From positions 320,001 to 384,000 of the forward strand of contig CM000436.1 in assembly GCA_000165345.1 (NCBI GenBank): a DNA stretch of 64,000 nt, given 5' to 3'. The translations under genes and the position numbers were made by a program. The notes under the pieces were generated by a model. That model had not been told where the DNA came from, did no database searches, and saw nothing but the letters and a program-made list of their open reading frames with translations. The number at the start of each line of letters is the position of its first letter. Within the stretch, counting starts at the first letter, position 1. This document shows, piece by piece, positions 54 through 60,398 of this stretch.

Positions 54-3000
54 TTGGCCTTGGATTGTGCATGCAGAGACGAGACAAGTTTAAAACATGC
101 AATTAATATAATAAATTTGATGAATGATATTTATTTTCCATTAAATCAGGTACCAAATATAATATTTGAAAATATATATTTTTATAATAATATATTTACT
201 AAAAATAAGGTAACTTATTTACATAATGCATTGGATTTATGTATTGATAAATCTGATCATATTAGTAACGATAATTATAATCGTGATCATCATCAATTCA
301 TGACAAAAAGAAATCAAAGGAGGAATAGAATTAATATTTTCCATGATGATGATGATGATGATGATAATAATAATAATAGTAATAATAATATTTGTATTTT
401 AAAAAAGATGAGATTTTTCTTCTTAATTAGTGATGATAATAATGATGATGAAGATAAATTGCAAGTATTTCATAAAAGTCAAGATCATGAATTCTTGGAG
501 AAAATTTATTATAATAATTATTCAAATGATTACCATAATTTTCAACATTTTTGTGATATTATGTCAAAATCTAAACTAAAAGTATTTCATGAATTACAAA
601 ACTTGGTACTTAATTATCTTTCTTTTGATACATGTTGGGTACTTGTATTATTTTTATCCATACATAATAGAATAATATTCAATAATAATGGAAATATGAA
701 TTCTTTCTTAATTGATATAATTGAAGGAAAAGATAATATGAATATTGATAATAATGATTATTATAGTAATAATAATCATATTGGAAGACTTTTAACACTT
801 TTTGGTATTTCATTAAACCATCAACTCCAATTTTTAGATGATTATGAAATTAAGAAAAGCTTAGAAATCATATTATTAAAAAATTCAAGCTCAAATTCAA
901 ATAATTCTGATTTTAATAATGATAAACAAATAATAAGTTCCAAATTGATTCCATTTTTTAATTCCAATGAAATAATGATAATTGATAATAAAATTATATC
1001 AGGAATGAATGGATCTGAAATTTTGGATAATATTCTGGAAGATTTAAGTAAACATAAAAATTTAACCATGTTAATTAATTATGAAAATATTCAATGTATT
1101 AATAAATCCCAAAAAAATCTGTTAATAAATCCATTTTTATTAATAAACAATAGAAATCAATTAAACTATATTTCTTTATTTATTAATAATTTAACCTTCA
1201 CAATCTTGAAAATGATGATGTTTGAAATAAAAGATAAAAATACTGGAAATGAATTAAATATGATATATAGAAGTCAAAATAGTAATAGTATTAGTATCAA
1301 TAATAATAATAATCATCATCATCATCATCATCATCTTGGAAAATTGATAAATATCTCGATTTTTGGAGAATTGACAAGAAGACTTTATCAGAATTATTTA
1401 AAATTAAACCATTTCCAAATGAAATTAGATGATCCAATAATAAAAATCCCTTGGACAATTTCTGAAGCTTCCAATTTACTTAAACCTAAAGATGTATTGA
1501 TTAAACAAGCTTTACATATTGAATCACTTGGATCTTTTCCTTCAAATAATCTTGGTGAATATGGATTTAGACTTAATGATGAAGATAGAAATTTGAATAA
1601 TTTTGAAGAATATGATGATCTTTATGAAGATGATGATGATGATAATGATAATATAAGTGGTTTGACCAATAATATTAATTATAATGATAGCAATATTAAT
1701 AATAATTATAATTTTAATATTGATAATGAAAAAAGATTAGCCAGATTGGATTTATTAAGAGTATTTGATTCGACTTTAAAATATGTTTCAAATAAATCAA
1801 AATTTGAATTATTAAGACGAGTATTAAGAGAAATGCCACATTTAATAGGATTTGAGGATAGACTTCATTTCTATTATCATTATATAGCAGAATTAAGATT
1901 TAATCATTATCAACCAGAATTATTTCATGAAATTCCAAGCTTTGAAATTAGAAGAACCCATATAATAAAAGATGGATTAAATAATATTGGAAGATTGGAT
2001 CCAAATAGATTAAGAGTAGCTTTTAGAATAATATTTTTGGATGAACAAGGAGATATAGAACCAGGTATTGATGGTGGAGGACTTTTAAAAGATTTTATTA
2101 CTAGTATTTCCAAAGAGCTTTGTTCAGAAAGTTTTGGTCTCTTTAAATCTTGTAAAGATAATACAATAATACCCAGAGAATATGATAGTTTAATAGAAAT
2201 ATCCAATAAGTTTAAAGACTTATTAATTGATGAACCACTAAGTTTAAAGAAATCCAATAATATTTTATATTTATTTGAATTTTTGGGAAAAATTGTAGGT
2301 AAAGCAATTTATGAAAAGATATTATTGGAAATAGAATTCAATCCAGTATTTTTAAATTCAGTTTTTGAACAAAATAATGATTTTACTGATTTATTAAATC
2401 TTGATGAAGAATTATATAAGAGTTTAAATTATATAAAAAGCTTAGAAAATTACCAAGAAGTGAAGAATCTTTGTTTAACTTTTTCGTTAACTTTAGATTT
2501 GGGATCTTTAACAGACGTTGGTAATAATAATAAACATCTTGAGATTGATTTAATTCCAAATGGAAGAAATATTCCAGTAAATAATGAAAATAAAATTGTA
2601 TATATAAAATTATTAACACATTATAAGTTAATAACAAGTATTAAACTTCAAGCTGAAGCTTTTCTTAGAGGTCTTAGTACAGTAATTCCAAATGAATCTT
2701 TAAGATTATTTTCACCATATGAATTACAATCATTAATTTCTGGAGTATATCAAAAATTGGATGTTAATAATCTTAGATTAAATACTTGTTATACTGGTTA
2801 TACAGAAACTTCTCAACAAATTATATGGCTTTGGGATATTTTAGAGAATGAATTTTCAACGGAAGAACAAGGAGAGTTTTTGTTATTTGTAACTTCTTCC
2901 AGAAAAGCTCCTTTGCTTGGATTTCAACATCTTAATCCAAAGTTTGGTATACAAATTGTTCCAGATAATACAAGATTACCAAGTGCTTCAACATGCTTTA

Positions 3001-3095
3001 ATTTATTAAAATTACCATCTTATAATTCAAAAGAAATCCTTAAATTGAAATTAAGACAAGCAATTTTCAATTCTAAAGGATTTGATTTAAGTTAA
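54..3095 (+). CDS. HECT-domain E3 ubiquitin-protein ligase. The reading frame is open to the window start, so the gene may be 5'-truncated; the first in-frame ATG is at 120.
   Basis: The C-terminal ~350 aa show HECT hallmarks: LRVAFRIIFLDEQGDIEPGIDGGGLLKDF...; the catalytic Cys context PSASTCFNLLKLPSY; and the terminal ...AIFNSKGFDLS a few residues before the stop. The N-terminal two thirds are low-complexity and N/D-rich, with a His7 run. The ORF track begins at a TTG with no upstream in-frame stop. Confidence 0.8.
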   Translation: MALDCACRDETSLKHAINIINLMNDIYFPLNQVPNIIFENIYFYNNIFTKNKVTYLHNALDLCIDKSDHISNDNYNRDHHQFMTKRNQRRNRINIFHDDDDDDDNNNNSNNNICILKKMRFFFLISDDNNDDEDKLQVFHKSQDHEFLEKIYYNNYSNDYHNFQHFCDIMSKSKLKVFHELQNLVLNYLSFDTCWVLVLFLSIHNRIIFNNNGNMNSFLIDIIEGKDNMNIDNNDYYSNNNHIGRLLTLFGISLNHQLQFLDDYEIKKSLEIILLKNSSSNSNNSDFNNDKQIISSKLIPFFNSNEIMIIDNKIISGMNGSEILDNILEDLSKHKNLTMLINYENIQCINKSQKNLLINPFLLINNRNQLNYISLFINNLTFTILKMMMFEIKDKNTGNELNMIYRSQNSNSISINNNNNHHHHHHHLGKLINISIFGELTRRLYQNYLKLNHFQMKLDDPIIKIPWTISEASNLLKPKDVLIKQALHIESLGSFPSNNLGEYGFRLNDEDRNLNNFEEYDDLYEDDDDDNDNISGLTNNINYNDSNINNNYNFNIDNEKRLARLDLLRVFDSTLKYVSNKSKFELLRRVLREMPHLIGFEDRLHFYYHYIAELRFNHYQPELFHEIPSFEIRRTHIIKDGLNNIGRLDPNRLRVAFRIIFLDEQGDIEPGIDGGGLLKDFITSISKELCSESFGLFKSCKDNTIIPREYDSLIEISNKFKDLLIDEPLSLKKSNNILYLFEFLGKIVGKAIYEKILLEIEFNPVFLNSVFEQNNDFTDLLNLDEELYKSLNYIKSLENYQEVKNLCLTFSLTLDLGSLTDVGNNNKHLEIDLIPNGRNIPVNNENKIVYIKLLTHYKLITSIKLQAEAFLRGLSTVIPNESLRLFSPYELQSLISGVYQKLDVNNLRLNTCYTGYTETSQQIIWLWDILENEFSTEEQGEFLLFVTSSRKAPLLGFQHLNPKFGIQIVPDNTRLPSASTCFNLLKLPSYNSKEILKLKLRQAIFNSKGFDLS

Positions 3096-3126: not shown

Positions 3127-4059
3127 TTATTTTTCTAAAGCTTTCTTAATTTCATCATATAATATTAGTACAAGTGCTCCACCTGTTCCTCTTAGTACAT
3201 TTGATAATGAACCTTTAAATAATGCTCCAACTCCTTCTTTTCTAATAATCTTTTTCAAACAATCATAAGCTCCAGTATATAAAACATCTTTCCCTTTCTT
3301 ACCAGCCATCATCATCATTCTTCTACGAATAGTATCAAATGGATAACATATTATACCAGCACTAGTTGTAACAGTTTGTGCAATTATCCATTTATAAAGC
3401 ATATTTTCTTGTTTCTGATTCTTAAAAAACATTTCTTTTGTTGTGTCATATAATCCAAAATAAGCTGCTCTATATACAAAAATTCCTTGTATTGATACAA
3501 AAAATCCTTGATATAAAGATCTAATACCACTTTGTTTTGAAATCTTCATAATGCAATCAAACATTCCCTTAAATTCTTTACTTCCATTCTTACCAATATC
3601 AGTAGCTAATCTTGTTCTTGCAAAATCTAATGGATAAACTATTCCAGAAGATGCAGCACCAGCCAAACCACCTGATAACATATTAACACCAAAAAATTTC
3701 CAGAAATCTGATTCTTTATTATAACGTGGCATCATATCTCTTATCATATCTTTAAATGCAAATCCAAATGCTTGTGTTGGAAAATATCTTATTACATTAG
3801 TTGTATTTCCTCTCCATAAACTTAATATTCCCTGTTCTTTTGATACTCTTCTTAAACAATCAAATATTCCAGCATATCTAGGAATTAAACCTTTAATAAT
3901 ATCTGGATTTGTATCTTGAGTTTGTAGAAGAAGTTTAACTCTTTCTATTGGTGCAACAGCTGTCTTACTAATTGTGGCAGAAATTCCACCTACAATAAAA
4001 TCTGTAAGGAAATTATTTTTTTTCTTTTTATTTTGTTTTTCTTCTTTTTTATTTTCCAT
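3127..4059 (-). CDS. AAC: Mitochondrial-carrier-family ADP/ATP translocase (AAC-like), with a Lys-rich N-terminal extension.
   Basis: Tripartite mitochondrial carrier repeats are present, including [10 protein letters not shown] and [10 protein letters not shown]. The AAC-specific signature RRRMMM occurs in [12 protein letters not shown]. The ORF track starts at a TTG at 4098; the first ATG (MENKKEE...) is at 4059 and gives about 310 aa, typical for AAC. Confidence 0.8.
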
Positions 4060-4340
4060 TTTTAAAAAAATGTTCAGATGATAATTATTTAATTTCAATT
4101 TTCTTTAAAAGTTTTATTATATTAATTTCAATATTACCATATCACACCTTAATATTTCTCAAAAGAATTAATGTTTATATGTTAAATATTATAAACACAT
4201 GTACCAATAAATGTTTATAAATTTAAATACATAAGTGCATTAACAGATATTGAATATTTGTATTTATTTGATTATTCTTATTTTTGTTATTTCTTCCTTT
4301 GAATTTGCATTGATTTAATTTTAAAGTCAAATTTAGAAAT

Positions 4341-4352
4341 TTTTGGCGGGAA
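4341..4352. promoter_or_regulatory. E2F-like site TTTTGGCGGGAA upstream of the ADP/ATP carrier gene.
   Basis: Exact match to the canonical E2F core TTTGGCGGGAA, about 280 bp upstream of the ATG at 4059. Confidence 0.5.
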
Positions 4353-4424: not shown

Positions 4425-6802
4425 TTAATTAGTGCAATATATTTCTTGTGCTGGAATAAGTTCATAATTAGCTCTATATTTTAAATATGCATTTTGACGA
4501 TGACTATTCCATGTTGTTGGAGCTTCTTGTATATTATCGGAAATTATTGTTTGATTATTAGAATTATTTATTCCTGTATTATTTGAATTAATAATATTAG
4601 AAAATGCAATTCTTTGTGCAATTAATGGTAAAATTTCATTGAGAGTTTCAATGAGTGGTATAAAATAGTCTAAAGTTAGTAAATATGTTCCATTACTTAA
4701 TCTTTTAGAATCAAAATTATCAAAATCAAATGATTCATAAGCCATTTGCATTGTTCTCCAGCCTGGAATGGTGTACTTACCATCAAACCATCCAAATGGA
4801 CCCATTTTGTTTTGTTCAGTAATATACCATCTTTGATCATATTTATATGTAACATTTGGTGCAATACAATGATTCATAACTTTAGTAATATTTGAAACTC
4901 CTTTATCATAATTTTTATCTAAATATGTGCTTTTTGGTATTAATAACCTTTTATTCATTAATTTTTGTGCGTGTAAATACTGTTGCTGGTTTTGCATGTT
5001 TTTCATTGATACAGATTTTGTAGTCTTGACTGTTTTCACTGGTGATTTTGTTGTTACTATTGTCACTCTTTTTGTAGTGGTAGTAGTTATTATTATAGGT
5101 TTTTTGGTTGTTGTTACTGTAGGTTTTCTAGTTGTAGTAGTAACTATTGGTTTTCTAGTTGTGGTAGTAGCTGTAGGTTTCTTAGTTGTGGTAGTTGCAA
5201 CTATGGGTTTCTTAGTTGTGGTAGTTGCAACTGTGGGTTTCTTAGTTGTGGTAGTAGCTGTAGGTTTTCTAGTTGTGGTAGTAGCTGTAGGCTTCTTAGT
5301 TGTGTTTGTCGTTCCAATGGGTTTCTTGGTAGTAGTTGTGTTAGTTGTCATTGTGGTTTTCTTAGTTGTGGTTGTAGTTCCAATGGGTTTCTTGGTAGTA
5401 GCTGTATAAGTTGCCACTGTGGGTTTCTTAGTTGTGGTTGTCGTTCCAATAGGTTTCTTGGTAGTAGTTGTATTAGTTGCCACTGTGGGTTTCTTAGTTG
5501 TGGTTGTCGTTCCAATAGGTTTCTTGGTAGTAGTTGTATTACTTGTCACTGTGGGCTTCTTAGTTGTGGTTGCCGTTCCTATGGGTTTCTTGGTAGTAGT
5601 TGTGTTAGTTCCCACTGGCTTTCTTGTTGTTGTTGTTGTTGTTGTAACCGTAGGTTTCTTAGTAGTTGTAAAAGTTGTAGTATTTAATGGTTTTGTTTCT
5701 TTATTTATTTTATCAATAGAACTTTCTTTTTCATTCAATGTTTCATCTCTATCTTTTTTAGTTAAAGATTCCAAAAAACTATTTAACCCATCCATAATTG
5801 TTGAATCACCAGAATTTGTATCTTTATTTGATTCTTCCTGTTGCATTTCTTCCTGCTCAAGTTCTAATTCGCTACTCTCTGAATCTTCAGTATTTGTTTC
5901 CTCATTACTGGTATCTGAATTGGTAACATCTGCAGAAGAAGAAGAAGAAGAAGAAGAAGTAGAAGTAGAAGTAGAAGTAGTAGTAGTAGTCATCTTCGTC
6001 GTTGTCGTCGTTGTTGATTGATTTTTTGAAGATATTGGCCTTTTTGTATTTGTAACACTTATTTGATTTGAAATATGAACCTTTTTTTCATTGTTACTCG
6101 ACATTTTGTCAATATTGTTACTTTTCGAGCTTTCAAATTGATTGTCTATTGTATTGCTACTTACAACTAAAGGCTCTTTATCTCCAATATATCTAACGAT
6201 TGTATCGTTAAAGTTAATTGGTTGGTAGTAAAGATGATCGTTAATTATTGGATTTTTAGCATTAAACCATTTAATTCCCATATTTGTATTAAAAAAAACA
6301 ATTCCTGCAATTGGGTAACTCATTATCAATGGTATTACATATTTTTGAGTAATACTATTACTATGAGTAACTACAACAATCTTTCTTGTTTCAAATTTTA
6401 AACAATTATTTACAAGCCAAAATAAAAATGATGAACTTGAAATTGTTTCAGACTTATTTCCAATTTTCGAATTAGTTAATTTTCCAGATTTTCCATAACC
6501 TGGTGGTGATACTGCTGCTACAGTAAAACCATTCTTATAAGCTTCATCTAATACTTTTGATTTTAACCAAGTATCCGCTATTAATTTTCCAATAAACAAA
6601 ACTAAACCTTTTTCTTCACTCTGATCTTGCTTCATTAATACTATTTCAATATCTAATTCTGATGAACAAGATAAAATTTGAGTTTTTGTAGTTATTAATG
6701 ATTTTGTATTTTTTGTTATACTATTAGATGTTTGTACTTTATCATTATTTTCATAAATATTACTTTCAATAAATATATTATTTGTATCATATGATGAAAA
6801 TA
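4425..6802 (-). CDS. Secreted or membrane mucin-like glycoprotein, main exon. It has an alpha/beta-hydrolase-like N-terminal domain, about 17 tandem copies of an 11-aa Thr-rich repeat (TTTTKKPxxTx), and a Cys/Trp-containing C-terminal domain.
   Basis: This is a 796-aa ORF. The N-terminal part resembles an alpha/beta-hydrolase core: LVLFIGK...GFTVAAVSPPGYGKSG and VVVTHSNS at the nucleophile-elbow position. The centre is a Thr/Lys/Pro O-glycosylation-type repeat encoded by a 33-nt tandem DNA repeat. A probable upstream exon is joined through a 70-nt GTAAGT...TTTTAG intron (see the 6873-7272 feature). Confidence 0.6.
5090..5670. repeat. 33-nt tandem repeat, about 17 imperfect copies, encoding the Thr-rich mucin repeats.
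   Basis: The plus-strand unit is GGTTTCTTAGTTGTGGTAGTAGCTGTAGGTTTT-like and repeats head-to-tail. It explains the spurious antisense poly-Val ORFs at 4927-5409 and 5419-6021. Confidence 0.9.
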
Positions 6803-6872
6803 CTAAAATAATCATTAGTTAAATTAAAAAAAAAAAAATTTTCAATTAATTTTAATATTAAATTAAACTTAC

Positions 6873-7272
6873 CTAAAGATTGATAATAAAAATAACTAAA
6901 AATTGCTGGTACAAATATAAAAATTAATGTCAATATACCATTCAATTGTCTTAACTTTTTTCCTCTATGCGATTTTGGTTTTATACATGTTTTACCAATT
7001 ATCCAAGAAATGCCCCATGATATGATTGGAAAACCAAAAAATCCCATAAAAAATAATACTACTTGTATTCTATCTCGCTTATATTTTGTTCTCAGTAATG
7101 ATTTAGATGTTTTTCTTTGAATTATTTCCAGTATTGTTGTATTACTGTCCGTTAAATGATAATAATCATTTTTATCTCCAATATCAAAGTTCTCAAGTTT
7201 TTTATCTTCCTTATTATGCTCTATATTTAATTTTAAATTTTCAATATTATTTTTTCTATTTTCAGTGACCAT
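6873..7272 (-). CDS. Probable exon 1 of the mucin-like gene. It encodes an N-terminal segment with two hydrophobic helices (signal anchor).
   Basis: This is a 161-aa ORF on the same strand, starting with ATG at 7272. Its tail overlaps the ATG of the downstream ORF in another frame. A consensus donor CTTTAG|GTAAGT lies at 6873/6872 and a poly-T tract plus TTTTAG acceptor ends at 6803. Splicing joins ...YYQSL to VFSSYDTNN... in frame (phase 1). E2F-like and GCATGC motifs lie 180-260 bp upstream, at 7452-7526. Confidence 0.5.
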
Positions 7273-7451: not shown

Positions 7452-7526
7452 TGCATGCATGTAAAAAATGACGTAATTAGTTATTTAATAAAAGAAATTT
7501 TTGAGTGTGCCGGACCCTCCCGCCAA
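7452..7526. promoter_or_regulatory. Promoter motif cluster upstream of mucin exon 1: TGCATGCATG, TGACGTAATTAG and TCCCGCCAA (E2F-like, reverse).
   Basis: The motifs are read directly at 7452-7461, 7468-7480 and 7518-7526, 180-255 bp upstream of the ATG at 7272. Confidence 0.5.
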
Positions 7527-7656: not shown

Positions 7657-9849
7657 TCAAAAATTAGCTACATTTTGTATAAATGGATGTGAGAAAGCTT
7701 CAAAAATATTAGGCCTATTTGCAGGATCATAAGTCAAAAGCCAGTTAATATATGATTTGCACTCTGAAGAAACATGATTTTCAAATATTGCACCCTTTTC
7801 AGCCTCTAAAGGTATCAATGAAAACGCTTCAGCAATAGAATTACTTCTTAAACCAAATGGCCTTCTTAAATGAAGAATCTCAAAAAATATACAACCAATT
7901 GCCCAAATATCAACTTTGTGAGAAACTATTCTTGGATTATCTAAAGAATCTCCTGGCCTTAATAGAATTTCTGGTGGCTGATACCAAACAGTACCACCTC
8001 CAATTCTCTCAATAATAATATTCCCAGATTCCTGATCAGATTGCTTACTAAGTCCAAAATCAGCAATTTTACAACATCCTCTATGGAGAATAATATTTCC
8101 AGGCTTTAAATCATAATGAATTATTGGATTCCTATTTGGAGTTATTCTATCACCATTTTTATCCAAGTTATTTAAATAAAGAATACCTTCAAGAATTTGT
8201 CTTATCCAAATAATTGCTAATTCTTCAGGAACATTACCATTTGTTTTTATAAATGTATCTAAATCTGGACCATCACACAGTTCCATAATTGTTACAAGCC
8301 TATCATTATCTACTTCAAAACAGTGAAGCATATTGACAATATTTGGATGTTTAAGATCTCTATGTAGCTTAATCTCATTACTTACTCTTTCTACGCAAAC
8401 CATTCTTTCATGTTCTGTCATATCAGGAGTAAGTTCATGAATTTTTGCAGCTGAAATACTCCAGGTATTCATATTTAATACTTCCCAAACCTCGGCAAAT
8501 CCCCCTTTTCCTATCATATTCAATAGAGTATATGCTTGAGAATCAGATAAAGTACTCAAACTGTTGTATCTTGAATTTTGTTGATGTCTAAATAGCCTGG
8601 ATTTTTTAACATATAGACTTCTTTCAATATCCAAGTTCATTCCTGATAATTCTAGTTTTTTTGTAAAATCTAATATATAATCTTGTCTTTTATTTAATAT
8701 AGAATAAGCAGTATTCTCTAAATTAGAATCCTGTTTCTTCCCAATCATTTCAATTCCATTCAAAATTTGATATGGAGTCTGATTTAGGTATCCTTGTAGA
8801 CGATTCTTTAAATTCATTAAATTCTGAAAGTTCAACCCATCTCTATAAATTTCATCATCAATATATCCTAGATTAATATGCGAAGTATAATGATTATTCT
8901 CAGCCATGTTGTTATTATTATCATCATTATTATTATTGTTATTCTTATTATTACTATCATTATTATTATCTGGATTAGTCGAGGCTAGTGTATTATAATG
9001 AACAATTTCACTTGAAGATATCTGGCTTTCTTCAATTTCTGATTTTTGTAACTCCTTCAAAGTATAACACGAATTATTCATGGAGTTTATACTACTTCTT
9101 TTACTTAAAGCCATACTTCCGCTGATTATTGATCCTTTAATATAACTATTTGCATCAAATTCTTTGTTTTCACTCGAATGTTGGGCTCTTTCAGTTATTA
9201 TATCTTGTGATATTCTATTGGAATTATCACTTTTTTCTTGTTCTTTTAAAATGATTTGCCTCTTTTTTTTCAATATATTGGCATTTGCAGCAGGAGCAAG
9301 ACCTACTTGAGATTCTTGCCAAAATAATTGATTTCTATTTAACTCTCTTTCAATCTTCTTAAGCTGAATTACTGATGTTTTAAAGCTATTCTTAATCAGA
9401 GCAAGCTTTCTTGTGAGATTTTGCTCATTGTCCTTTAGATTCTCTTTCATCAAAGTAATCTCATTACATTTCTCCATAATTTCTTCTATACTCTTATTAT
9501 TTCTTTCCATACAATCATAATCAACACAAGCTGAAATATTTTCCTTAATTTTAATAAGTTTTTCTTTCAATTTTACAATATTATCCAATATTCTATGCCT
9601 ATTTTCAGTATTATTAGATAAAGGTATCGCAAAATTTTGATCTCCTATTGACTGTTTTTCTTCATCAAGATGAATAAAAATTCCTCTTTTTTGTTGTATT
9701 CCATTATTGGAAGGGGAATGTAATCTCCCATAAAATGATTTATATCTACTCAAATACTTTGTTGCGAGAACTTGCTCATGCGCAGAAATTCTATCAATTC
9801 GATCTGAACTCAGGTCTAAATTACTTTCATTTCTATTTTCTAAATTCAT
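7657..9849 (-). CDS. TLK: Tousled-like serine/threonine protein kinase.
   Basis: The C-terminal kinase domain contains GKGGFAEVWEV (Gly loop), the TLK-diagnostic catalytic loop IIHYDLKPGNIIL (HYD instead of HRD), KIADFGLSK (DFG) and WYQPPEIL. A long N-terminal coiled-coil region (residues ~100-200) matches TLK architecture. Confidence 0.8.
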   Translation of the reverse strand: MNLENRNESNLDLSSDRIDRISAHEQVLATKYLSRYKSFYGRLHSPSNNGIQQKRGIFIHLDEEKQSIGDQNFAIPLSNNTENRHRILDNIVKLKEKLIKIKENISACVDYDCMERNNKSIEEIMEKCNEITLMKENLKDNEQNLTRKLALIKNSFKTSVIQLKKIERELNRNQLFWQESQVGLAPAANANILKKKRQIILKEQEKSDNSNRISQDIITERAQHSSENKEFDANSYIKGSIISGSMALSKRSSINSMNNSCYTLKELQKSEIEESQISSSEIVHYNTLASTNPDNNNDSNNKNNNNNNDDNNNNMAENNHYTSHINLGYIDDEIYRDGLNFQNLMNLKNRLQGYLNQTPYQILNGIEMIGKKQDSNLENTAYSILNKRQDYILDFTKKLELSGMNLDIERSLYVKKSRLFRHQQNSRYNSLSTLSDSQAYTLLNMIGKGGFAEVWEVLNMNTWSISAAKIHELTPDMTEHERMVCVERVSNEIKLHRDLKHPNIVNMLHCFEVDNDRLVTIMELCDGPDLDTFIKTNGNVPEELAIIWIRQILEGILYLNNLDKNGDRITPNRNPIIHYDLKPGNIILHRGCCKIADFGLSKQSDQESGNIIIERIGGGTVWYQPPEILLRPGDSLDNPRIVSHKVDIWAIGCIFFEILHLRRPFGLRSNSIAEAFSLIPLEAEKGAIFENHVSSECKSYINWLLTYDPANRPNIFEAFSHPFIQNVANF

Positions 9850-18831: not shown

Positions 18832-21800
18832 TTAGGAGTCAACAATTTTGCTTTGCACCAATTTGTGTACGTTGCATAAAAAGTCAACATAAGTAGTTTC
18901 AAATCCATATGCATCTTCAACCAACATAGCCTTGAACTTGGCTTCAATATTCTGAGAAACGGGAGAAACTATAACAACAGGCATATAACAATTCACAGAG
19001 AATCTATCGTTTCTAATTTGTTGTACCACATTTGAGATACGTTTAGAAATACCAATATTGGATTCCATTGTAGGTAAATAGTCCTCAGGTGGAAAAGAAA
19101 GTTTAGTAAAGTTTTCAAAATTGATGGAAGTGACTCCGAAAATTTCTGAAATAACTTTAGAATCAACTTGGGGTCCAAAATAAAGATAGATTTCTTTCCC
19201 ATTTTCTAGGACATAAATTCCATCAGAAAGTATTCTTTCTCCAGAACAAGCAATTGAATGATTGAGCCAATATCTAGATATAATAGGAGCATCAGATGAT
19301 TGGAAGGAGCTAGTATTAGAAGCATTCATTCCCATCATATTATTGGTATTATTTCCAGTATTGATAGATGAATCATTTTGAAAGGTAAGCTGGTAAGGAA
19401 GTCCAACAGATTCAAGCTTTTGCAACTCATTATTAGATTCGGATAAAATAAGAGAATGATGCAAAGGATAGAGTCTTGGGTAAAGAGTTGCTGTAGTGAA
19501 GCTTACTGAAGCATAAAGAAGCTCATATAAACCAACAAGCTGTTCTGATACAGTAAATTCCAAAACAGTATTTAGTGGCATTAACGAAGGATGCTTGAAT
19601 AATGATGAAACATAAATCAAAGTAAGTTTAAGAGAATCAGGAAGAATGAGCTGGCCAGTTGATGATGTATTTGCACAGTGTTCTCTATAAGAAAATAGCA
19701 TATCGATAATTGAATTCAGAGTTTCTTGCTTCCAAGCTGTGAGAATTGAGCTGGAGTTTTTGTTAGTAGAAAATGGAAGACCAGGAACTACTGATGTAGC
19801 TGCAGCTATAGCTCCTGTTGAACTTACAGAAGTAGATCCAGAAGAACCAGAAAAACCTCTTTGACCTTTTGAAACAATATGATGAGCAGCCATTCTAGCA
19901 TATATATTAATAATTGGTTCAATAGAAGCATATCTAAAAGCTGTGGTAATACTAGTAGTAACTGGAATAGATATGGTAAGCACTCTCAACAGTCTTTGTC
20001 GTTTATCTTTGCATGTATATAAGCAAGCAGCTTGTAGAAAGACATTTTTTCTTTGTTCCAAATTCTCCTCATGACGAAGTAGAAATGCTATTGCAGTATT
20101 ACTATCCAACTTGGGAATTTGAAAGGCTGAAAGGTCAGGAGTCGGACCACCAGCAGTCCATGGTGCATAAATCTTAGAAACTGCAATTCCTCTAGAGCAA
20201 CGCAGTTTAAATGTACAATCATAGGCCACATTTTGCACAAAGAATATACTATATAAAGTTTGATAAATATCTCTGTAAATCTTCTCAAAAGGAAATTCTG
20301 TAAATAAACGTAATTTACCACCAGTGTGTTGAGATAAATATGCAAATGTACTTGTAGGTACAGAGTTGGCGCCAAAAGCCGACCCCGCATTTGCATTTGG
20401 ACTAGTAAGACCTTGACCTTGCTCTCCTGTTGAATAATCTCCTTGAATAATTTTTGTTACAATAAATGTGTCAAGGGAGACATTGATTTCTCTGCAAGCT
20501 TGAACCATTGTATCTAGCTGTTGAATATTATGTACCAAATATCCAGAAACAAATCCTAATGATGGTTTCATTCCTTTAGAAGTTTTTCGAGGTGGGGACT
20601 TGGGAGCCACATTGGTTTCCTTTGTGTTAATGGCAGCAAATCCAATATTTGGTACTGAACTGACAAAGGAAAAGATAGAACCGGTCGAATTTCTTGCTTT
20701 AAAAATTTGAGTAGCAAGAGAAACTGCTGAAAAGTATGCATTATGTGGAGTTGAGTGAGGGGCTATGAGAGATGGAATACGATCAATGAGTTCATGGAGA
20801 AATTCCAATCCTTGTGCAACTGGGACACAAAGCTCAGATAAAGGACAAGGTAGGAATGGCTCCATTATGTCTGATACTACGCACATTTTGATTGGAGGTT
20901 TAGAGTTTTCATTCAAATTCTGATATGGGAATAAAAGGATTTCTCTTGAATAAAGTATAAGAGTAACATTAGATTCTGGTGAACTTTGGGCCAGTTGAGT
21001 AAAAATATGTTTAAGACAATAAAGGATAAGATTTGTAACATTTCCTTGTAATGCCATAGAAGAAGCTTCAATTACAAAGCAGTAGCAGGGTAGTTCTGGG
21101 GTAGTTGTAACACCAAGACTAGCTGGGGCAAAGTAGTCTACAACTCCATGATATATTTCAGGATAGTTATTTTGATCATCATTTGGAGATTGATAGCTTT
21201 GTGTCTTGATTTGTGATTGTAGTAATCTTAAGTAGTCCATGGGAATATCAAATGTATGCCCACAAAAGTTACAAAGACACTGACTACCATTTTGAGAAAC
21301 GCATGTAAATGGATTTGCATATGCTCTACATCTAAGACACCTGATTGGCTCTATAGTAGAGGAGGAGTTTACAATAGGTACCGGATTTTCAAAATCATTC
21401 AATAGAGGGAAAGGTTGAATAATTGCTGCACATGGAAGTTTCATAGATTGCAAAATTGAGTGTTGACTTGGAATTTGGTTTAAAGTTAACTTATAAAACT
21501 TTCCTGTTGCATTACCTCTATCTATCAACATCGAATGAGGTTCGGCCAAGGAATTTGGCGGAAGTAAATACTTGTCACTCTCATAGATACAACAATCCTT
21601 ATCAATTATGTTTCCAAACACTGGCCTTGGTATCTGGGATGGATCCACTCTAGATTGTACTGGTTTAGTTAAAGATGTTACAAGATTTGTTGAATTTTCG
21701 GCCAAATGTTGTTGTTGTTGTTGTTGTTGTTGATATTGCTGTTGTTGAGTCTGCAAATTTGTCTGATACTGACCCTGATGGAACTGTGTGGAAGAACCAG

Positions 21801-22284
21801 GATGTGGTGCCGCTATTGTACTTGTTTGCATGGGCGGGTTATTCATTTTTGCCTCATGTTTGGGCGGGAACTGGCTCCCATAGGCCGTATTGTATGAGGA
21901 GCCAGTAGTAGGAATGCTTGAATTGTTGTTAGGAGGGGGGTATGTAGTTTGTTGAACAGGTTGTGGTTGTGAATTTGTGGGATTGTTATATGTATTGTAG
22001 TTATAGCTCTGGTTTATATTTGATGTGAAATTAGTGTTACTTTGAATCTGGTGGTTATTGTTTAGTTGTTGGTTATTAGCATTTTGTAGGTAATTATTCG
22101 TCTGACCATTATTATACTTATTATTAATTACGGAGTAATTTTGGACATACTGAGGTATGTTTGGTTGTTGAGTTGCACTTTGAATTGAAGATGAATTATT
22201 TGTTTGATTAGGAATGTCGTTTACTGGTAAGCTATTTCCATTTTGTGAGTAATTTGATGTACTAAAATTTGGATAAACTCTCAT
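18832..22284 (-). CDS. SEC24: COPII coat protein Sec24.
   Basis: The Q/N/P-rich N-terminus is followed by a Sec23/24 zinc finger, CLRCRAYANPF...CNFCGH, then trunk, beta-barrel and gelsolin-like regions. At 1150 aa, size and domain order fit Sec24 rather than Sec23. Confidence 0.85.
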   Translation of the reverse strand: MRVYPNFSTSNYSQNGNSLPVNDIPNQTNNSSSIQSATQQPNIPQYVQNYSVINNKYNNGQTNNYLQNANNQQLNNNHQIQSNTNFTSNINQSYNYNTYNNPTNSQPQPVQQTTYPPPNNNSSIPTTGSSYNTAYGSQFPPKHEAKMNNPPMQTSTIAAPHPGSSTQFHQGQYQTNLQTQQQQYQQQQQQQQHLAENSTNLVTSLTKPVQSRVDPSQIPRPVFGNIIDKDCCIYESDKYLLPPNSLAEPHSMLIDRGNATGKFYKLTLNQIPSQHSILQSMKLPCAAIIQPFPLLNDFENPVPIVNSSSTIEPIRCLRCRAYANPFTCVSQNGSQCLCNFCGHTFDIPMDYLRLLQSQIKTQSYQSPNDDQNNYPEIYHGVVDYFAPASLGVTTTPELPCYCFVIEASSMALQGNVTNLILYCLKHIFTQLAQSSPESNVTLILYSREILLFPYQNLNENSKPPIKMCVVSDIMEPFLPCPLSELCVPVAQGLEFLHELIDRIPSLIAPHSTPHNAYFSAVSLATQIFKARNSTGSIFSFVSSVPNIGFAAINTKETNVAPKSPPRKTSKGMKPSLGFVSGYLVHNIQQLDTMVQACREINVSLDTFIVTKIIQGDYSTGEQGQGLTSPNANAGSAFGANSVPTSTFAYLSQHTGGKLRLFTEFPFEKIYRDIYQTLYSIFFVQNVAYDCTFKLRCSRGIAVSKIYAPWTAGGPTPDLSAFQIPKLDSNTAIAFLLRHEENLEQRKNVFLQAACLYTCKDKRQRLLRVLTISIPVTTSITTAFRYASIEPIINIYARMAAHHIVSKGQRGFSGSSGSTSVSSTGAIAAATSVVPGLPFSTNKNSSSILTAWKQETLNSIIDMLFSYREHCANTSSTGQLILPDSLKLTLIYVSSLFKHPSLMPLNTVLEFTVSEQLVGLYELLYASVSFTTATLYPRLYPLHHSLILSESNNELQKLESVGLPYQLTFQNDSSINTGNNTNNMMGMNASNTSSFQSSDAPIISRYWLNHSIACSGERILSDGIYVLENGKEIYLYFGPQVDSKVISEIFGVTSINFENFTKLSFPPEDYLPTMESNIGISKRISNVVQQIRNDRFSVNCYMPVVIVSPVSQNIEAKFKAMLVEDAYGFETTYVDFLCNVHKLVQSKIVDS

Positions 22285-41623: not shown

Positions 41624-44335
41624 ATGTTAATATCAAAGTTATTTAAAAGAAAAACAACAAATACATTGAATCATGTGGATAATGTAAATGTTGAGACTGA
41701 TCAACTATTTGAACTTAAAAAAATGGTTATGGAAAAATACAAAAATTTGATGAGATTAAAAAGAAATGATCAAGATCAAATAGATTATCGAATTTATATA
41801 GAATCATCATTTATCAATGATTCTTGTTTTTTGCCTCCACTTTTAATCGATAAAAAACCAGGAACAAAGCTTACAAAGTTAAATAATGATCAAGCACAAT
41901 TTTTGTTGTTAATGTTATTATATAATCAACAACTATCATTTCAAGAGAATATAATAAATCAATCAATTAATATTTGTTTGAAGGAACAATATATATTAAT
42001 AGTAGAACAAATGGTGAGAAGTTTAATGTTATCAAAGAAACAGAAAAAAATGGTAGTAAAATGGAAGAAGTTGAATAGTAATGTAGAATTATTTCCAATT
42101 AGTAATTTTGTGAATATTACTTCGAGTAATATAATACAAGGATTTATTGGAGATTGTTCATTTATTGTTGTGTTATCTTTATTGCTAGAGCATGAGAAGA
42201 AATTTGATTCAAATTTATTATCAAATCTGATAAGTCCAATAAAATTCTCAATAAAGAATCAAAATCATCAGAATCAAAATAATACTAATGGTTATCAAAA
42301 AATTCATAATTATGAAAATAATAATAATAATATTAATGAATTGGATGATGTGTTATGTCTTTATAAATGTAAATTATTAATTAATGGTATTTGGAGAAAT
42401 ATTTTTGTGGATAGTTTAATTCCTATTGATTCTGGAAATAATTGTTTGTTATCACATTTTGATTGTAATAAATATTATGGTATAACCTTAATTGAAAAAG
42501 CATATTTAAAAGTTATGGCAAATAGATATGATTCTGTTGAAAGTAATCCTTCAATAGATTTATATTATTTAACAGGATGGATACCTGAAACTATTTCTAT
42601 TAAATCACATTATGAAAAAAAAGGGAGCTATTTTCTAAATTTATGGAATCGTATAAAAAAGCCAATACAAAATGGATATTGCTTAATGGCTTTGGGTACT
42701 AATGAAATTAATTCAAATATTGATAATCATGCAAGATTAAGTCCTAGTAATTATAGAAGTTCTCGAGATAAACCACTTAATAGATTTGATAATGAAATTG
42801 ATAATAATCAGTTAGAATATAAGTTTATTTCAAAAGAAGATATTTGTAAAAAAACTGGATTAGTAACTAAACATGCATATCAAGTTTTAAGAATTGTTGA
42901 ACTAGTTAATCAAGAAAATGATTCTATTCGCAGATTAATTTTATTAAGAAATCCATGGGGAAAAATCAGTTGGAAAGGAAAATTCTCAAAATATGATAAA
43001 GAAATATGGACTAATGAACTTGTAGAATTATTAGGTAATCATTTTAATTATAAAGTTAATCAAGATAATGGAATTTTTTGGATTGAATGGAATGATATAT
43101 TGAAATGGTTTTCACATATATATTTAGCTTGGGATCCTGAAAAAGTATCCAAACATTTAAAAAAAGTACATGGTAAATGGTTACCATGCCCACATAATTC
43201 AATATTAAAAGATGATTTACATCTTTTATATTTTTATCCTCAATATAAGTTATCTATTGATACTAAGTTAATAAATAAATTAAAAATGGATCATTCAAAT
43301 TTATTGAATGAAAAAGAATTCATTAATCGAGACATTAATAAACCACAATCAAATATTAATGATTATAAAAGATTAAAGTTACATTTTGATTCAAATCAAA
43401 ATGATTATATTGAAGATTATTCAAAAAATAATCTATTTGTAAGAAAATGGAAAAAATCCGATATTATTGATTATGAAAATTATAATGTTGGTGATATTTG
43501 GATTGTATTAAATAGACATATTGATTATTTGGAAGCAAAAGAATTTGATGATAATTACAATAAGCCAGATATTAATAATATACCTTTTATGTCAATAAGT
43601 ATATTTAGAGGTAGAAGCCGAATAGTCACTCAAGAAAGGTTACCAATTATGCAAGGTGTCTATAGTAATGGTAATGTAATTACATTCAAAACAAGTATTT
43701 TTCAATTATTAAGAGAATATGAACATTTTGATTTACAAGAAAATAAAGATTTTGTATTAGTTATTACTCAATATCAAAGTAATAAAAGTTTTAATTATAC
43801 ATTAAATATATATAGTAATTTTGAAATGAGTATTAAGTTATTGGATTCTTATTTTCAAAAGATTATATATCCTATTAGTAATAATTATAGTTTTATAGAA
43901 ATTAATGGTAAAATTCTACATTATAATTATAGTGAAAGATATTATATTAGTTTAATGAGAAATTCAAAAATTAAATTGGTTCCTGCTATATCTAATAAAT
44001 ATTTTAATTTAAAAAGCGAAACAGATAAAGTAAATACTTTAAATTCATTTAAAAGTGAGTTATCTGATGAACATTTCAGAGTTTTAATATTATTAGAAAT
44101 TAAAGAAAAATGTAATAATTTCAAGTTAAGGATTTTTCCAGAAACCTTTGATGAACAAGACAAAATCACTAAATTGAGTTCCAGTAATGATTTATATAAT
44201 AATAGTAATTGTAAATTTACTACATCCATTTGCAGTTATGGTAATTACTTTATTTTGATTGATTTCAAAGAAAAACAACAAGATTTTGTAAAAGGCAACT
44301 TTTTTAAGCTTATTATTTATTATCAAAAAATTTAA
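41624..44335 (+). CDS. Calpain-like cysteine protease.
   Basis: The catalytic triad context is conserved: QGFIGDCSFIVVLSLL (Cys), TKHAYQVLRIV (His) and LILLRNPWGKISWKG (Asn). A long C-terminal non-catalytic extension follows. Confidence 0.8.
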   Translation: MLISKLFKRKTTNTLNHVDNVNVETDQLFELKKMVMEKYKNLMRLKRNDQDQIDYRIYIESSFINDSCFLPPLLIDKKPGTKLTKLNNDQAQFLLLMLLYNQQLSFQENIINQSINICLKEQYILIVEQMVRSLMLSKKQKKMVVKWKKLNSNVELFPISNFVNITSSNIIQGFIGDCSFIVVLSLLLEHEKKFDSNLLSNLISPIKFSIKNQNHQNQNNTNGYQKIHNYENNNNNINELDDVLCLYKCKLLINGIWRNIFVDSLIPIDSGNNCLLSHFDCNKYYGITLIEKAYLKVMANRYDSVESNPSIDLYYLTGWIPETISIKSHYEKKGSYFLNLWNRIKKPIQNGYCLMALGTNEINSNIDNHARLSPSNYRSSRDKPLNRFDNEIDNNQLEYKFISKEDICKKTGLVTKHAYQVLRIVELVNQENDSIRRLILLRNPWGKISWKGKFSKYDKEIWTNELVELLGNHFNYKVNQDNGIFWIEWNDILKWFSHIYLAWDPEKVSKHLKKVHGKWLPCPHNSILKDDLHLLYFYPQYKLSIDTKLINKLKMDHSNLLNEKEFINRDINKPQSNINDYKRLKLHFDSNQNDYIEDYSKNNLFVRKWKKSDIIDYENYNVGDIWIVLNRHIDYLEAKEFDDNYNKPDINNIPFMSISIFRGRSRIVTQERLPIMQGVYSNGNVITFKTSIFQLLREYEHFDLQENKDFVLVITQYQSNKSFNYTLNIYSNFEMSIKLLDSYFQKIIYPISNNYSFIEINGKILHYNYSERYYISLMRNSKIKLVPAISNKYFNLKSETDKVNTLNSFKSELSDEHFRVLILLEIKEKCNNFKLRIFPETFDEQDKITKLSSSNDLYNNSNCKFTTSICSYGNYFILIDFKEKQQDFVKGNFFKLIIYYQKI

Positions 44336-45789: not shown

Positions 45790-54210
<8,421 letters not shown>

Positions 54211-54305
54211 CTTCAACTAATTTGCAAACTTCTTCCTCCTTTTTCCTTTTCCTTATCCCATATAATCCTCTTACCTAAATTTTCACTGCTTGACTTTGCC
54301 AAATG

Positions 54306-54696: not shown

Positions 54697-55779
54697 TTAC
54701 TCCGATAATTTTGATCGGATAACCTTTATTAACCACTTCTCGATATCTACAATACAGTCAATTTCGAATCTCTTTTGATCCTGCTGCATTTGCATGCAAA
54801 ATGTATTCCACTCTGATTTTGATTCTTGAGAAATCTCATTTGAACTCATTAGTCTGTTTCTGGTATTAATTATTCTCGAAATTTCATCTTGTGTAATATC
54901 AAAAACATTATATGTAGCTATTAGCTCGTTCTCTATCAACTTCGAAACAGGAGGAACTTTAATTGGCAAAAGTTTTGGGATACTAAAACTTGAATCATAC
55001 CAAGTGCCTGATTTACCTCCCATTATATACGTTGCTGCTATTGAAAGTCCAAAACAGTCGTAATCGCATAGAATCCAGAACTTTGTATCTTCTGGAAGAT
55101 CTTGACTTAGTCTGTATAGTAAAGTCCTAGTAGGTAGATCCGAAAATCCTCTAGCTGTAATTAATATACAAGAATTATCAAACTCTTTATGAAATCCAAA
55201 TTCTAAAAGTCTTTGGAAAATAGTATCCTTTTCAACAACCAAAACAAACTTGATCTTTGAATAGTAGCTAAACTTTAAACCATTCATACCCTTGAATAGA
55301 TAAGGACTTATCGAATGCCCCATACTTTCAAAAATGGACATACAATCCAATCTAACCTCTCTTCTTCTTTCACAAAATCCTATTTCGTATCCTTGAATTA
55401 TCAAAGGACCTCTTATCCTCCCTCTAGCTGTGGAAACCACGTTCAAAAGTTCTCGAGGAGTCTGTACTAGATGAGTTACTTGTGCAATATATTTGTCTGA
55501 AATACTTTGTTTTGTATATAAACTCGGATTATTATAATAAATATCTCTTAAAGTCGAATGGAAGCCTTCCTTGACATTTCTATGAAGAATATTCATAACC
55601 GAAACCAAACAAGTTGAATTGTAAATTTGACTCCTACTTCCTCCATTTATTAACTCCCTTATTATGCTACATACTGAACTTTCCAAACGACTTGTAATTC
55701 TTTTATCTTCACCTTCTAAAACAAGAAGCTTATCCTTACTTTTACCTCTCTCAATCAAATTCCTCTCTTCTTGCACCAT
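54697..55779 (-). CDS. SPO11: SPO11 / topoisomerase VI subunit A homologue (meiotic DNA double-strand-break transesterase).
   Basis: The catalytic tyrosine context STLRDIYYNNPSLY matches RDI(F/Y)Y. The Toprim region FVLVVEKDTIFQRL (acidic metal ligand), ILITARGFSDLPTRTLLYRL and ILCDYDCFGLSIA (DxD) is colinear with yeast Spo11 IVIVEKEAVF / LITGKGFPDFLTRLFL / FTDADPYGISIA. Confidence 0.8.
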   Translation of the reverse strand: MVQEERNLIERGKSKDKLLVLEGEDKRITSRLESSVCSIIRELINGGSRSQIYNSTCLVSVMNILHRNVKEGFHSTLRDIYYNNPSLYTKQSISDKYIAQVTHLVQTPRELLNVVSTARGRIRGPLIIQGYEIGFCERRREVRLDCMSIFESMGHSISPYLFKGMNGLKFSYYSKIKFVLVVEKDTIFQRLLEFGFHKEFDNSCILITARGFSDLPTRTLLYRLSQDLPEDTKFWILCDYDCFGLSIAATYIMGGKSGTWYDSSFSIPKLLPIKVPPVSKLIENELIATYNVFDITQDEISRIINTRNRLMSSNEISQESKSEWNTFCMQMQQDQKRFEIDCIVDIEKWLIKVIRSKLSE

Positions 55780-59111: not shown

Positions 59112-60398
59112 ATGATAGAGCTTTCATTGGGAAAACCAAGTCCTGAAAGAGGAGGTGATAATTCATTGATTAGTTTTCAGAAATATTATGAATTTGAAAA
59201 AGATTTAACAATAAATAGCCACGAGAATAATAACACAGAAAATTATGATATAAGTAATAACCAATTTGTCAATGTTGGAAAATTCTTAATCATTGAAGAT
59301 GAAAATTTTCAAAACAAAAGAGAAATAGTTACAGAACCTGTTATAGAAGTTAGAGAATTAATTAATACAGAATTAAATATTAATCAGCCTTCAGATTCTT
59401 TTCAATTAATGAAGGTTGAAGAATCTATTACGAGCATTTCAATTTCCATTACCATCTATATGATTGTGAGTATTTCAATAGTATTCTTGAACTATAAAAT
59501 TTTTTCAGGAATCATTGAATTTCCAATATTTGTTTCTTGGTTTCAACAACTAGTTGGGTTGGCAATCTTTCAAATTCTAAAAATTTATAAAAATCACCTA
59601 AGATTTGAATTGACTGAATTTACTCACTTTGATCATTTTGAATGGGAAACAGGAAGACATATGATACCATTAGCATTGTGTTTTATTGGAATGGTTTCTT
59701 TGAGTAATATATGCTTAAAACATGTATTAGTTTCAACTTATCAAGTTGCAAGAAGTACAACGATTATTTTTAATCTAATTCTTTCATATAAAATATTAAA
59801 ACAGAAATCTTCAATTTTTACTGTAGCATCTTGTATTATTGTAATGATTGGGTTTACAATAAGTGCATTTGATTCAAATACATTAAATTTGAATGGAGTA
59901 ATTTATGGGGTATTTTCATCAATTATACAATCATTTTATAGTGTATTGATAAAAAAACAGCTAAATATTGTTAATAACAATCAAATTCAACTCTTATATT
60001 ATCAGTTAATTTTATCTTCAATAATGTTTATACCTATTCTGATTGTTACTGGTGAAATCAGATTTTTTTTTATATTATTTGACATTAATCAAGGAATATT
60101 CAAAATATGTTTATTATTAAATTTCTTAATAATTTCCGGTGTTTTGTCAATACTAATCAATTTCTCAACTTTTCAGCTTATTAAGAAAACAAACTCTATA
60201 ACTTTTAATATTATTGCTTTACTAAAGTCATGCATTCAAAGTATTGGCGGGATTTTATTTTTGAATGAAATAGTTACTTTTCAATCTATTTTTGGAACAG
60301 CTCTAACATTATTTGGAACGTTTATGTATAGTTTTAATTCAAATAATAGAAACTCAATAAATAGTATGGAATATCAAGATTTAGAAAATAGAAATTGA
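59112..60398 (+). CDS. Nucleotide-sugar / triose-phosphate transporter family (SLC35 / DMT) membrane protein.
   Basis: About 10 TM helices. The segment LSNICLKHVLVSTYQVARSTTIIFNLILSYKILKQKSS matches the TPT/SLC35 core (vSFyQV.K..tp.f..l.s.l.l..k.s). There is an unusual ~110-aa hydrophilic N-terminal extension. Confidence 0.55.
   Translation: MIELSLGKPSPERGGDNSLISFQKYYEFEKDLTINSHENNNTENYDISNNQFVNVGKFLIIEDENFQNKREIVTEPVIEVRELINTELNINQPSDSFQLMKVEESITSISISITIYMIVSISIVFLNYKIFSGIIEFPIFVSWFQQLVGLAIFQILKIYKNHLRFELTEFTHFDHFEWETGRHMIPLALCFIGMVSLSNICLKHVLVSTYQVARSTTIIFNLILSYKILKQKSSIFTVASCIIVMIGFTISAFDSNTLNLNGVIYGVFSSIIQSFYSVLIKKQLNIVNNNQIQLLYYQLILSSIMFIPILIVTGEIRFFFILFDINQGIFKICLLLNFLIISGVLSILINFSTFQLIKKTNSITFNIIALLKSCIQSIGGILFLNEIVTFQSIFGTALTLFGTFMYSFNSNNRNSINSMEYQDLENRN

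Follow-up and report, generated by a model that had tools for sequence, protein, structure and literature searches.

We analyzed a 64,000-nucleotide stretch of AT-rich DNA (GC content, 21-38%) from contig CM000436.1 of assembly GCA_000165345.1, positions 320,001 to 384,000 of the forward strand (hereafter the window), and focused on a minus-strand gene, probably cgd8_1220 of Cryptosporidium, whose product joins a hydrolase-like domain to Thr-rich repeats. The domain is contained in a 796-codon open reading frame (ORF) at 4425-6815 on the minus strand, and an intron at 6872-6803 links this ORF in frame to an upstream exon at 7272-6873. The junction reads CAATCTTTAG, followed by the intron (GTAAGT to TTTTAG, T-rich) and then TATTTTCA. 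Joining 7272-6873 to 6802-4425 keeps the frame and yields a 925-amino-acid (aa) protein, to which all residue numbers below refer and which is identical to GenBank record WKS79371.1 (Cryptosporidium sp. 43IA8). Two Cryptosporidium parvum proteins, KAL5366852.1 (922 aa) and QOY39873.1/CPATCC_003927 (883 aa), differ from it only in repeat length, and the intron position is common to the C. meleagridis, C. felis, C. bovis, and C. ryanae models. The older Iowa II model, EAK89340/XP_627029 (796 aa), corresponds to the unspliced ORF; it is without exon 1 and both hydrophobic helices, and its start ATG straddles the boundary between the intron and exon 2 (6815-6813). Exon 1 is present in the newer records WKS79371.1, KAL5366852.1, and QOY39873.1, while one C. 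canis model (P0001) translates through the intron. The features of the gene are as follows.

6873..7272, minus strand: exon 1 (residues 1-133 and the first base of codon 134), encoding a basic/acidic N-terminal tail and two hydrophobic helices.
6803..6872, minus strand: GT..AG intron of 70 nt, phase 1; the spliced product matches WKS79371.1, and the junction recurs in models from other species.
4425..6802, minus strand: exon 2 (residues 134-925 and the stop codon).
7062-6994, minus strand: hydrophobic helix TM1, residues 71-93 (Kyte-Doolittle peak >1.6).
6936-6874, minus strand: hydrophobic helix TM2, residues 113-133 (Kyte-Doolittle peak >1.6).
6171..6680, minus strand: predicted alpha/beta-hydrolase-fold domain, residues 175-344, with strands b1-b7 and no lid.
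6605-6585, minus strand: LVLFIGK, residues 200-206.
6483..6518, minus strand: post-strand-4 loop AAVSPPGYGKSG, residues 229-240, the counterpart of the D-x-P-G-x-G-x-S loop of alpha/beta hydrolases.
6377-6354, minus strand: VVVTHSNS, residues 276-283.
6354..6368, minus strand: putative nucleophile-elbow motif T279-H-S281-N-S283, with Ser281 at its center.
6219..6242, minus strand: N321-D322-H323-LYYQP, the loop between strands 6 and 7, with the only invariant His of the family.
5688..6170, minus strand: Ser/Thr-rich acidic spacer, residues 345-505.
5001..5687, minus strand: Thr-Lys-Pro tandem repeats forming a mucin-like stalk, residues 506-734.
4428..4925, minus strand: conserved C-terminal domain, residues ~760-925, with two invariant Cys, GPFGWFDGKYTIPGW, the helix DYFIPLIETLNEILPLIAQRIAF, and a terminal IYCTN.

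A previous reading of this DNA, made from sequence only, had proposed that the N-terminal domain of a mucin has an alpha/beta-hydrolase-like fold with a noncanonical nucleophile elbow. LVLFIGK, AAVSPPGYGKSG, and VVVTHSNS do lie upstream of the Thr-rich repeats, as that reading said, and are on the minus strand. The interval it gave for the domain, 5700-6700, proved right in part: 6680-6171 (~170 aa) is the folded domain and holds LVLFIGK, SPPGYGKS, VVVTHSNS, NDHLYYQP, and RYIGDKEP, while 6170-5688 is the Ser/Thr-rich acidic spacer. Nor is the domain N-terminal, because the membrane-hairpin exon at 7272-6873 comes first; the single 796-aa ORF had been used in its place.

We found that single sequences of the domain scored 12-15 bits against Pfam Abhydrolase_1 (PF00561; E = 0.16-0.0012, hidden Markov model positions 16-77), below the gathering threshold of 25.8 bits, and that the Pfam COesterase domain (type-B carboxylesterase, ~550 aa against ~170 aa here) gave no match at E<=1. 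A single-sequence phmmer search of the PDB returned a P-loop-like match to RAD17 alone, which we judged spurious. In the PDB search with an 11-sequence profile of the domain (A5), the top match was human CIB/ABHD14B (1IMJ; E = 0.004), and six more alpha/beta hydrolases, 4MEA, 4MEB, 3BDI, BphD, and HsaD among them, matched over the same segment from strand 3 to strand 4. Aligning A5 directly with ABHD14B, whose sequence we confirmed against 1imj_A, hhalign gave a probability of 89% (P = 2.4e-6); the 90 aligned columns run from strand 3 to strand 6. A profile restricted to Cryptosporidium (A1) had a lone PDB match, the GT-B rhamnosyltransferase WsaF (E = 0.12), which we dismissed as a chance match, given that alpha/beta hydrolases came out of both the deeper profile and the structure searches.

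Structure prediction pointed the same way. We modeled the naturally mucin-less C. muris ortholog (P0006), which is 56% identical to the window protein in the domain, using AlphaFold (AF2) with a 23-sequence alignment, and residues 10-145 reached a predicted local distance difference test (pLDDT) score of >90. The predicted central sheet is mostly parallel and has the characteristic beta-alpha-beta order of the alpha/beta-hydrolase superfamily (b3-aA-b4-aB-b5-aC-b6...). A Foldseek search of the PDB with this model returned 297 matches at E<1e-3, and the best 50 of the 297 were all alpha/beta hydrolases. Sequence and structure searches thus converge independently on one small, lid-less subfamily, and the model supports an alpha/beta-hydrolase fold for the domain, with a resemblance beyond chance. 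The hydrolase-like fold that had been proposed is therefore clearly borne out by both the family profile and the predicted structure.

The model also places the central Ser of T-H-S-N-S, Ser281, at the strand-to-helix nucleophile elbow, in agreement with the earlier suggestion that this motif stands in place of the canonical G-x-S-x-G. In the C. muris model, the secondary structure assigned by DSSP runs from a strand at 111-116 (TVIVSQ) through Ser117 to a helix at 118-131. The context h-h-h-h-T-H-S parallels the canonical h-h-h-h-G-H-S, the local match to Pfam Abhydrolase_1 stops exactly at Ser281, and the elbow of ABHD14B is likewise Ser-rich (S109-P-S111-L-S113). Among 20 homologs, the motif is [TSVAC]-[HQ]-S-N-x, with Ser in 19 of the 20 and Asn in all 20. 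At the elbow positions expected to be small, the first is T, S, V, A, or C and the second S, W, D, I, F, or V; the nucleophile position holds Gly in one lineage, a homolog from a transcriptome with the TSA prefix GHVT that has A-H-G-N-V in two isoforms.

The remainder of a classical catalytic triad was judged in alignments A2, A4, A5, and A6. Asp341 and Glu343 of R-Y-I-G-D-K-E-P can be paired by eye with G-D-Q-D162-P of ABHD14B, but no conserved acid was found after strand 7 in these alignments: Glu343 becomes K or T within Cryptosporidium, and Asp341 is replaced outside the genus (by G-E-R, G-G-R, G-T-R, G-K-R, or D-G-A), where G-x-R-R takes the place of the acid positions of G-D-K-E-P. Neither strand 8 nor its histidine was found, as the chain enters a low-complexity linker directly after strand 7, and in the C-terminal domain the family alignments show no His that is invariant. 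At the H-G oxyanion motif, I, V, L, or M stands in place of the His. The invariant His323 adjoins the equally invariant Asp322 in the N-D-H-x-[YF]-Y loop. Of the two grounds for refutation named in the sequence-only reading, only one applies: a significant match to the fold exists, but the canonical Ser-Asp-His arrangement was not found in the sequence alignments of the domain.

Taken together, these observations somewhat favor a pseudo-enzyme, or at least a nonclassical site, over an active esterase or lipase. The domain would not act as a classical Ser-Asp-His hydrolase, because it lacks a conserved acid after strand 7 as well as strand 8 with its His, and because Gly takes the place of Ser in one lineage; its conserved pocket (the SPPG loop, H-S-N, M-G-x-x-W, and N-D-H-x-Y-Y) would instead bind a ligand or a partner. 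The sequence-only reading had left the choice between a divergent esterase or lipase and a pseudo-enzyme; with the canonical acid and His missing, the former becomes the less likely of the two.

Several points weigh against this interpretation. The structure model is of the C. muris ortholog and not of the window protein, and its loop with Asp322-His323 was modeled at a pLDDT of only <50-67. The hhalign alignment moves the elbow by two residues, pairing Ser283 with Ser111 of ABHD14B; we preferred the structural assignment because Ser281 is conserved and Ser283 is not. The topology and O-glycosylation discussed below are deductions from the protein sequence, and a literature search found no experimental data on this gene. 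Most directly, the putative active-site residues are the best conserved of the protein (Ser in 19 of 20 homologs, with Asn282, Asp322, His323, Gly, and Trp invariant), and such conservation would also be expected of a working, unconventional catalytic site.

For this last reason, as no other residues of the protein are as well conserved as those of the pocket, we keep a minority place for an active hydrolase with relocated machinery, which we consider unlikely though still the strongest of the alternatives. Here Ser281 would be the nucleophile, and His323 of the post-strand-6 loop, with Asp322 or another acid, would replace the strand-8 His, making the protein an esterase, lipase, or deacetylase anchored to a membrane, in the lumen or at the surface. 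Besides the near-invariance of Ser and the invariance of Asn282, Asp322, and His323, this proposal gains from the closest relative, ABHD14B, being an active enzyme with an S-x-S-x-S elbow akin to T-H-S-N-S and S-Q-S-N-S, and from the location of the loop: lids of alpha/beta hydrolases sit above the active site at the post-strand-6 loop. It loses ground on several counts, since a neighboring Asp-His pair cannot adopt the usual Asp-His hydrogen-bond geometry, and we know of no precedent for a catalytic His from the strand-6/7 loop in this fold. Further, the residue two positions after the nucleophile is bulky (W, F, I, V, or D) outside Cryptosporidium, the oxyanion His is lost to I, V, L, or M, and the GHVT lineage has exchanged Ser for Gly yet keeps Asn and Asp-His.

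A second alternative, which we regard as improbable and rank below the first, is that the fold is split, with the TYLLTL-DYFIPLIETLNEILPLIAQRIAF strand and helix of the C-terminal domain supplying the missing strand 8 and helix F, so that spacer and mucin would form a ~400-aa insertion in one globular unit. The N- and C-terminal domains always occur together, joined by a linker of ~60 to ~480 aa. In the C. muris model, the C-terminal domain is poorly modeled save for one helix, 319-341, at a pLDDT of ~91, and it is possible that this helix packs on the hydrolase-like core; the consensus YF-x-PL-x3-L-x-EFL may resemble the usual C-terminal helix of the fold, and DYFIPLIETLNEILPLIAQRIAF is long and amphipathic. 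Against a split fold, hhalign of the C-terminal domain profile with ABHD14B gave a probability of 0.03%, no His follows the candidate strand TYLLTL, and the C-terminal domain had no similarity in Pfam, to any PDB chain, or to ABHD14B.

Combining these two ideas would give a new class of alpha/beta hydrolase, in which Ser281 acts with His323/Asp322 from the strand-6/7 loop, the C-terminal strand and helix complete the fold, and a ~400-aa O-glycosylated mucin sits inside one catalytic unit, as an active, apicomplexan-specific, membrane-anchored surface or lumenal esterase/lipase; we think this distinctly improbable. Finally, a chance or generic Rossmann-like beta-alpha-beta pattern unrelated to alpha/beta hydrolases, to which the subthreshold Pfam scores (12-15 bits against 25.8), an unreliable AF2 model of the window N-terminal domain with 6 sequences (pLDDT 45), and the weak WsaF glycosyltransferase match (E = 0.12) might point, is largely refuted by the confident 23-sequence model, whose every top structural match is an alpha/beta hydrolase, and by the hhalign P value of 2.4e-6, and we give it almost no weight.

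The pseudo-enzyme reading is set within a wider family. Orthologs are present in all sampled Cryptosporidium species, and an exhaustive profile search of 1.84 billion representative proteins returned only 15 at E<=0.001. Outside Cryptosporidium, members were found in Siedleckia nematoides, Rhytidocystis pertsovi, the coccidia Neospora caninum (NCLIV_055600) and Eimeria necatrix, and the GHVT transcriptome; a literature search found nothing on NCLIV_055600. Full-length members have the hairpin followed by the hydrolase-like and C-terminal domains, the latter of which carries the signature GP-x3-F-x-G-K-x4-G-W ... Y-F-x2-L ... and a Y-C end. We rejected one candidate, P0021 (523 aa with ~8 identical tandem units; E = 3e-4 through a "PPGGYG" segment), as spurious and repeat-driven. 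The C. meleagridis ortholog (P0022) has a precomputed Pfam hit, PF27509.1, an accession absent from the Pfam release scanned here.

The Thr-rich stalk has a narrower distribution. The repeat region (residues 506-734) is 48% Thr, and a composition of 48% Thr, 18% Lys, and 8% Pro was measured over residues 520-735; TRF reports arrays with periods of 27-114 nt. The region thus has the Ser/Thr/Pro-rich tandem repeats expected of a mucin-type glycoprotein. Its length varies among isolates and species (5001-5990, minus strand). The C. parvum-type records of 883, 922, and 925 aa are distinguished solely by how many Thr-Lys-Pro units they have and by a Ser-Thr run; the orthologs of C. meleagridis (960 aa) and of C. 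felis (973 aa) diverge further. Indels in cgd8_1220, listed as a "hydrolase" in CryptoDB, are on record for C. parvum, C. hominis, and C. meleagridis (PMC7718795). The gastric orthologs, from C. muris (400 aa) and C. andersoni (414 aa), have a ~65-aa linker between the hydrolase-like and C-terminal domains and contain neither Thr repeats nor spacer. The coccidian and gregarine-like homologs are likewise without the repeats. As the apicomplexan two-domain unit occurs without repeats in gastric species, coccidia, and gregarine-like lineages, the alignments indicate that the conserved unit is apicomplexan and older than the stalk, and that the stalk is a linker expansion limited to intestinal Cryptosporidium. 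The mucin architecture that had been described holds insofar as Thr repeats follow the domain; on this evidence, the mucin is a lineage-specific linker expansion and not the defining feature.

We propose that the protein is arranged, from the N terminus on, as a tail, a membrane hairpin of two helices joined by a basic loop, a lid-less alpha/beta-hydrolase-fold domain of the ABHD14/CIB-like type, a variable linker, and an orphan C-terminal domain with conserved cysteines. The basic loop, KTCIKPKSHRGKKLRQLNG, separates TM1 from TM2, and no cleavable signal peptide was apparent in the 925-aa protein. A two-helix hairpin is also found in the Neospora, Rhytidocystis, and GHVT homologs, and the basic inter-helix loop is kept in distant homologs, whose N-terminal flank is acidic. 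By the positive-inside rule, the loop would be cytosolic, which would put everything beyond the hairpin, from the hydrolase-like domain through the stalk to the C-terminal domain, in a lumen or outside the cell. Such a placement fits the conserved cysteines, of which the family has four, and O-glycosylation of the Thr repeats, which could occur if these are lumenal or extracellular. In intestinal species, the expanded stalk would either push the C-terminal domain away from the membrane or make a large glycosylated loop.

The gene order on chromosome 8 runs HECT ligase, mitochondrial carrier, the gene itself, kinase, Sec24-like, calpain, Spo11, and a 428-aa TPT transporter. As the last of these matches cgd8_1370 as given in PMC9713705, the gene is probably cgd8_1220. 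Upstream and downstream neighbors lie at 54-3095 (HECT ubiquitin ligase), 3127-4098 (mitochondrial ADP/ATP-type carrier), 7657-9849 (protein kinase), 18832-22284 (Sec23/24-like), 41624-44335 (calpain), 54697-55779 (Spo11/Top6A), and 59112-60398 (TPT-family sugar-nucleotide transporter). The surrounding genes in the window are ordinary housekeeping genes, and no mucin or hydrolase cluster was seen near the gene. A 2808-codon ORF at 45790-54216 on the minus strand carries very long poly-Gln and Gln-His tracts in its C-terminal third, which account for a rise in GC and a dip in AT skew at 46-48 kb; it is not a second Thr-rich mucin. Two plus-strand ORFs, at 4927-5409 and 5419-6021, were also set aside as genes, being a Val/Gly/Phe-rich, low-complexity mirror of the ACN/AAR/CCN repeat codons.

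The intergenic region upstream of the gene contains two candidate promoter elements.

7452..7526, minus strand: upstream intergenic region with the palindrome TGCATGCA (7452-7459) and the E2F-like TTGGCGGGA (7518-7526).

The palindrome occurs in 8 copies in the window, against 0.5 expected, and several are intergenic; the copy at 7452-7459 lies ~180 nt upstream of the start codon of the gene, and the others are at 68, 44386, 44390, 51763, 54791, 56042, and 58834. It resembles the GCATGCA-type motif described upstream of apicomplexan genes. The E2F-like element has three exact copies, at 7518-7526 (minus), 4343-4351 (plus), and 60244-60252 (plus), and 10 matches in the window, against 2.2 expected, when one-mismatch variants are included. 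One exact copy is upstream of the gene; another falls in the spacer that separates the stop codon of the gene from the divergent-looking mitochondrial carrier gene. Both the palindrome and the E2F-like element upstream of the gene could serve it as promoter elements.

The fold assignment itself is already public: "Alpha/Beta hydrolase fold containing protein" appears as the name of the C. tyzzeri protein and of two C. parvum records, and the label is found in GenBank and CryptoDB. What we add is that the triad is degenerate, that the domain has an affinity to ABHD14, that the two-domain family with its membrane hairpin is apicomplexan-wide, and that the mucin is a lineage-specific linker expansion. 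If these hold, cgd8_1220 is a member of an uncharacterized apicomplexan family rather than primarily a mucin, and the fold label alone gives no ground for counting it as an active serine hydrolase or a drug target. The analysis also corrects the single-exon 796-aa model EAK89340, suggests that the length-polymorphic repeat region could serve as a typing marker, and nominates Ser281, Asn282, Asp322, and His323 for mutagenesis. These are annotation refinements of modest practical weight and open no long-standing question.

Among known systems, the nearest relative by both sequence and structure is ABHD14B/CIB. Like this domain, ABHD14B (1IMJ) and the CIB-like Ta0194 (3BDI) are small, lid-less alpha/beta-hydrolase folds. 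The window domain shares with ABHD14B/CIB the motif x-G-x4-[ED]-T-W after strand 3, the P-G-x-G-x-S loop after strand 4 (AIDLPGLGHS in ABHD14B, the counterpart of AAVSPPGYGKSG), a Ser-rich elbow (S-P-S-L-S there, T-H-S-N-S here), and Y-G-D-x-[DE]-P after strand 7. ABHD14A, a paralog of ABHD14B, is also anchored in the membrane at its N terminus. However, ABHD14B has strand 8, helix F, and a complete Ser111-Asp162-His188 triad, whereas here the acid is unconserved, and a variable linker followed by an unrelated C-terminal domain takes the place of strand 8 and the His. The domain is just ~14% identical to ABHD14B and stays below the Pfam threshold; with borderline significance in sequence and an incomplete triad, membership in the ABHD14 family is not established.

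In function, the nearest analogies would be noncatalytic modules of the neuroligin type on glycosylated stalks and carboxyl ester lipase (CEL, or bile-salt-stimulated lipase). In neuroligins, gliotactin, and neurotactin, an alpha/beta-hydrolase fold with a disabled triad serves as an extracellular binding module on an O-glycosylated Ser/Thr-rich stalk with a membrane anchor. The neuroligin type has a cholinesterase-like (type-B carboxylesterase) domain of ~550 aa that has lost the Ser, and a C-terminal anchor, whereas the protein described here has a minimal fold of ~170 aa that keeps the Ser, an N-terminal anchor, and a stalk leading outward to a second domain. Homology is at the superfamily level alone. 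CEL has, after its alpha/beta-hydrolase domain, a mucin-like region of variable-number tandem repeats that is O-glycosylated and polymorphic in length. Unlike cgd8_1220, CEL is secreted and fully active, with a canonical G-x-S-x-G and triad, and its repeats are C-terminal and Pro-rich, with no domain after them.

Within Cryptosporidium, gp900, CpClec, CpMuc4/5, and gp40/15 resemble cgd8_1220 in combining poly-Thr tracts with globular or anchoring modules and in their repeat-length polymorphism between species and isolates. These mucins are lost or absent in gastric species (PMC6532270). In cgd8_1220, in contrast to these mucins, the core is older than the mucin and is shared with coccidia and gregarine-like lineages, and the Thr repeats are an insertion into the inter-domain linker rather than an ancestral part of the protein.

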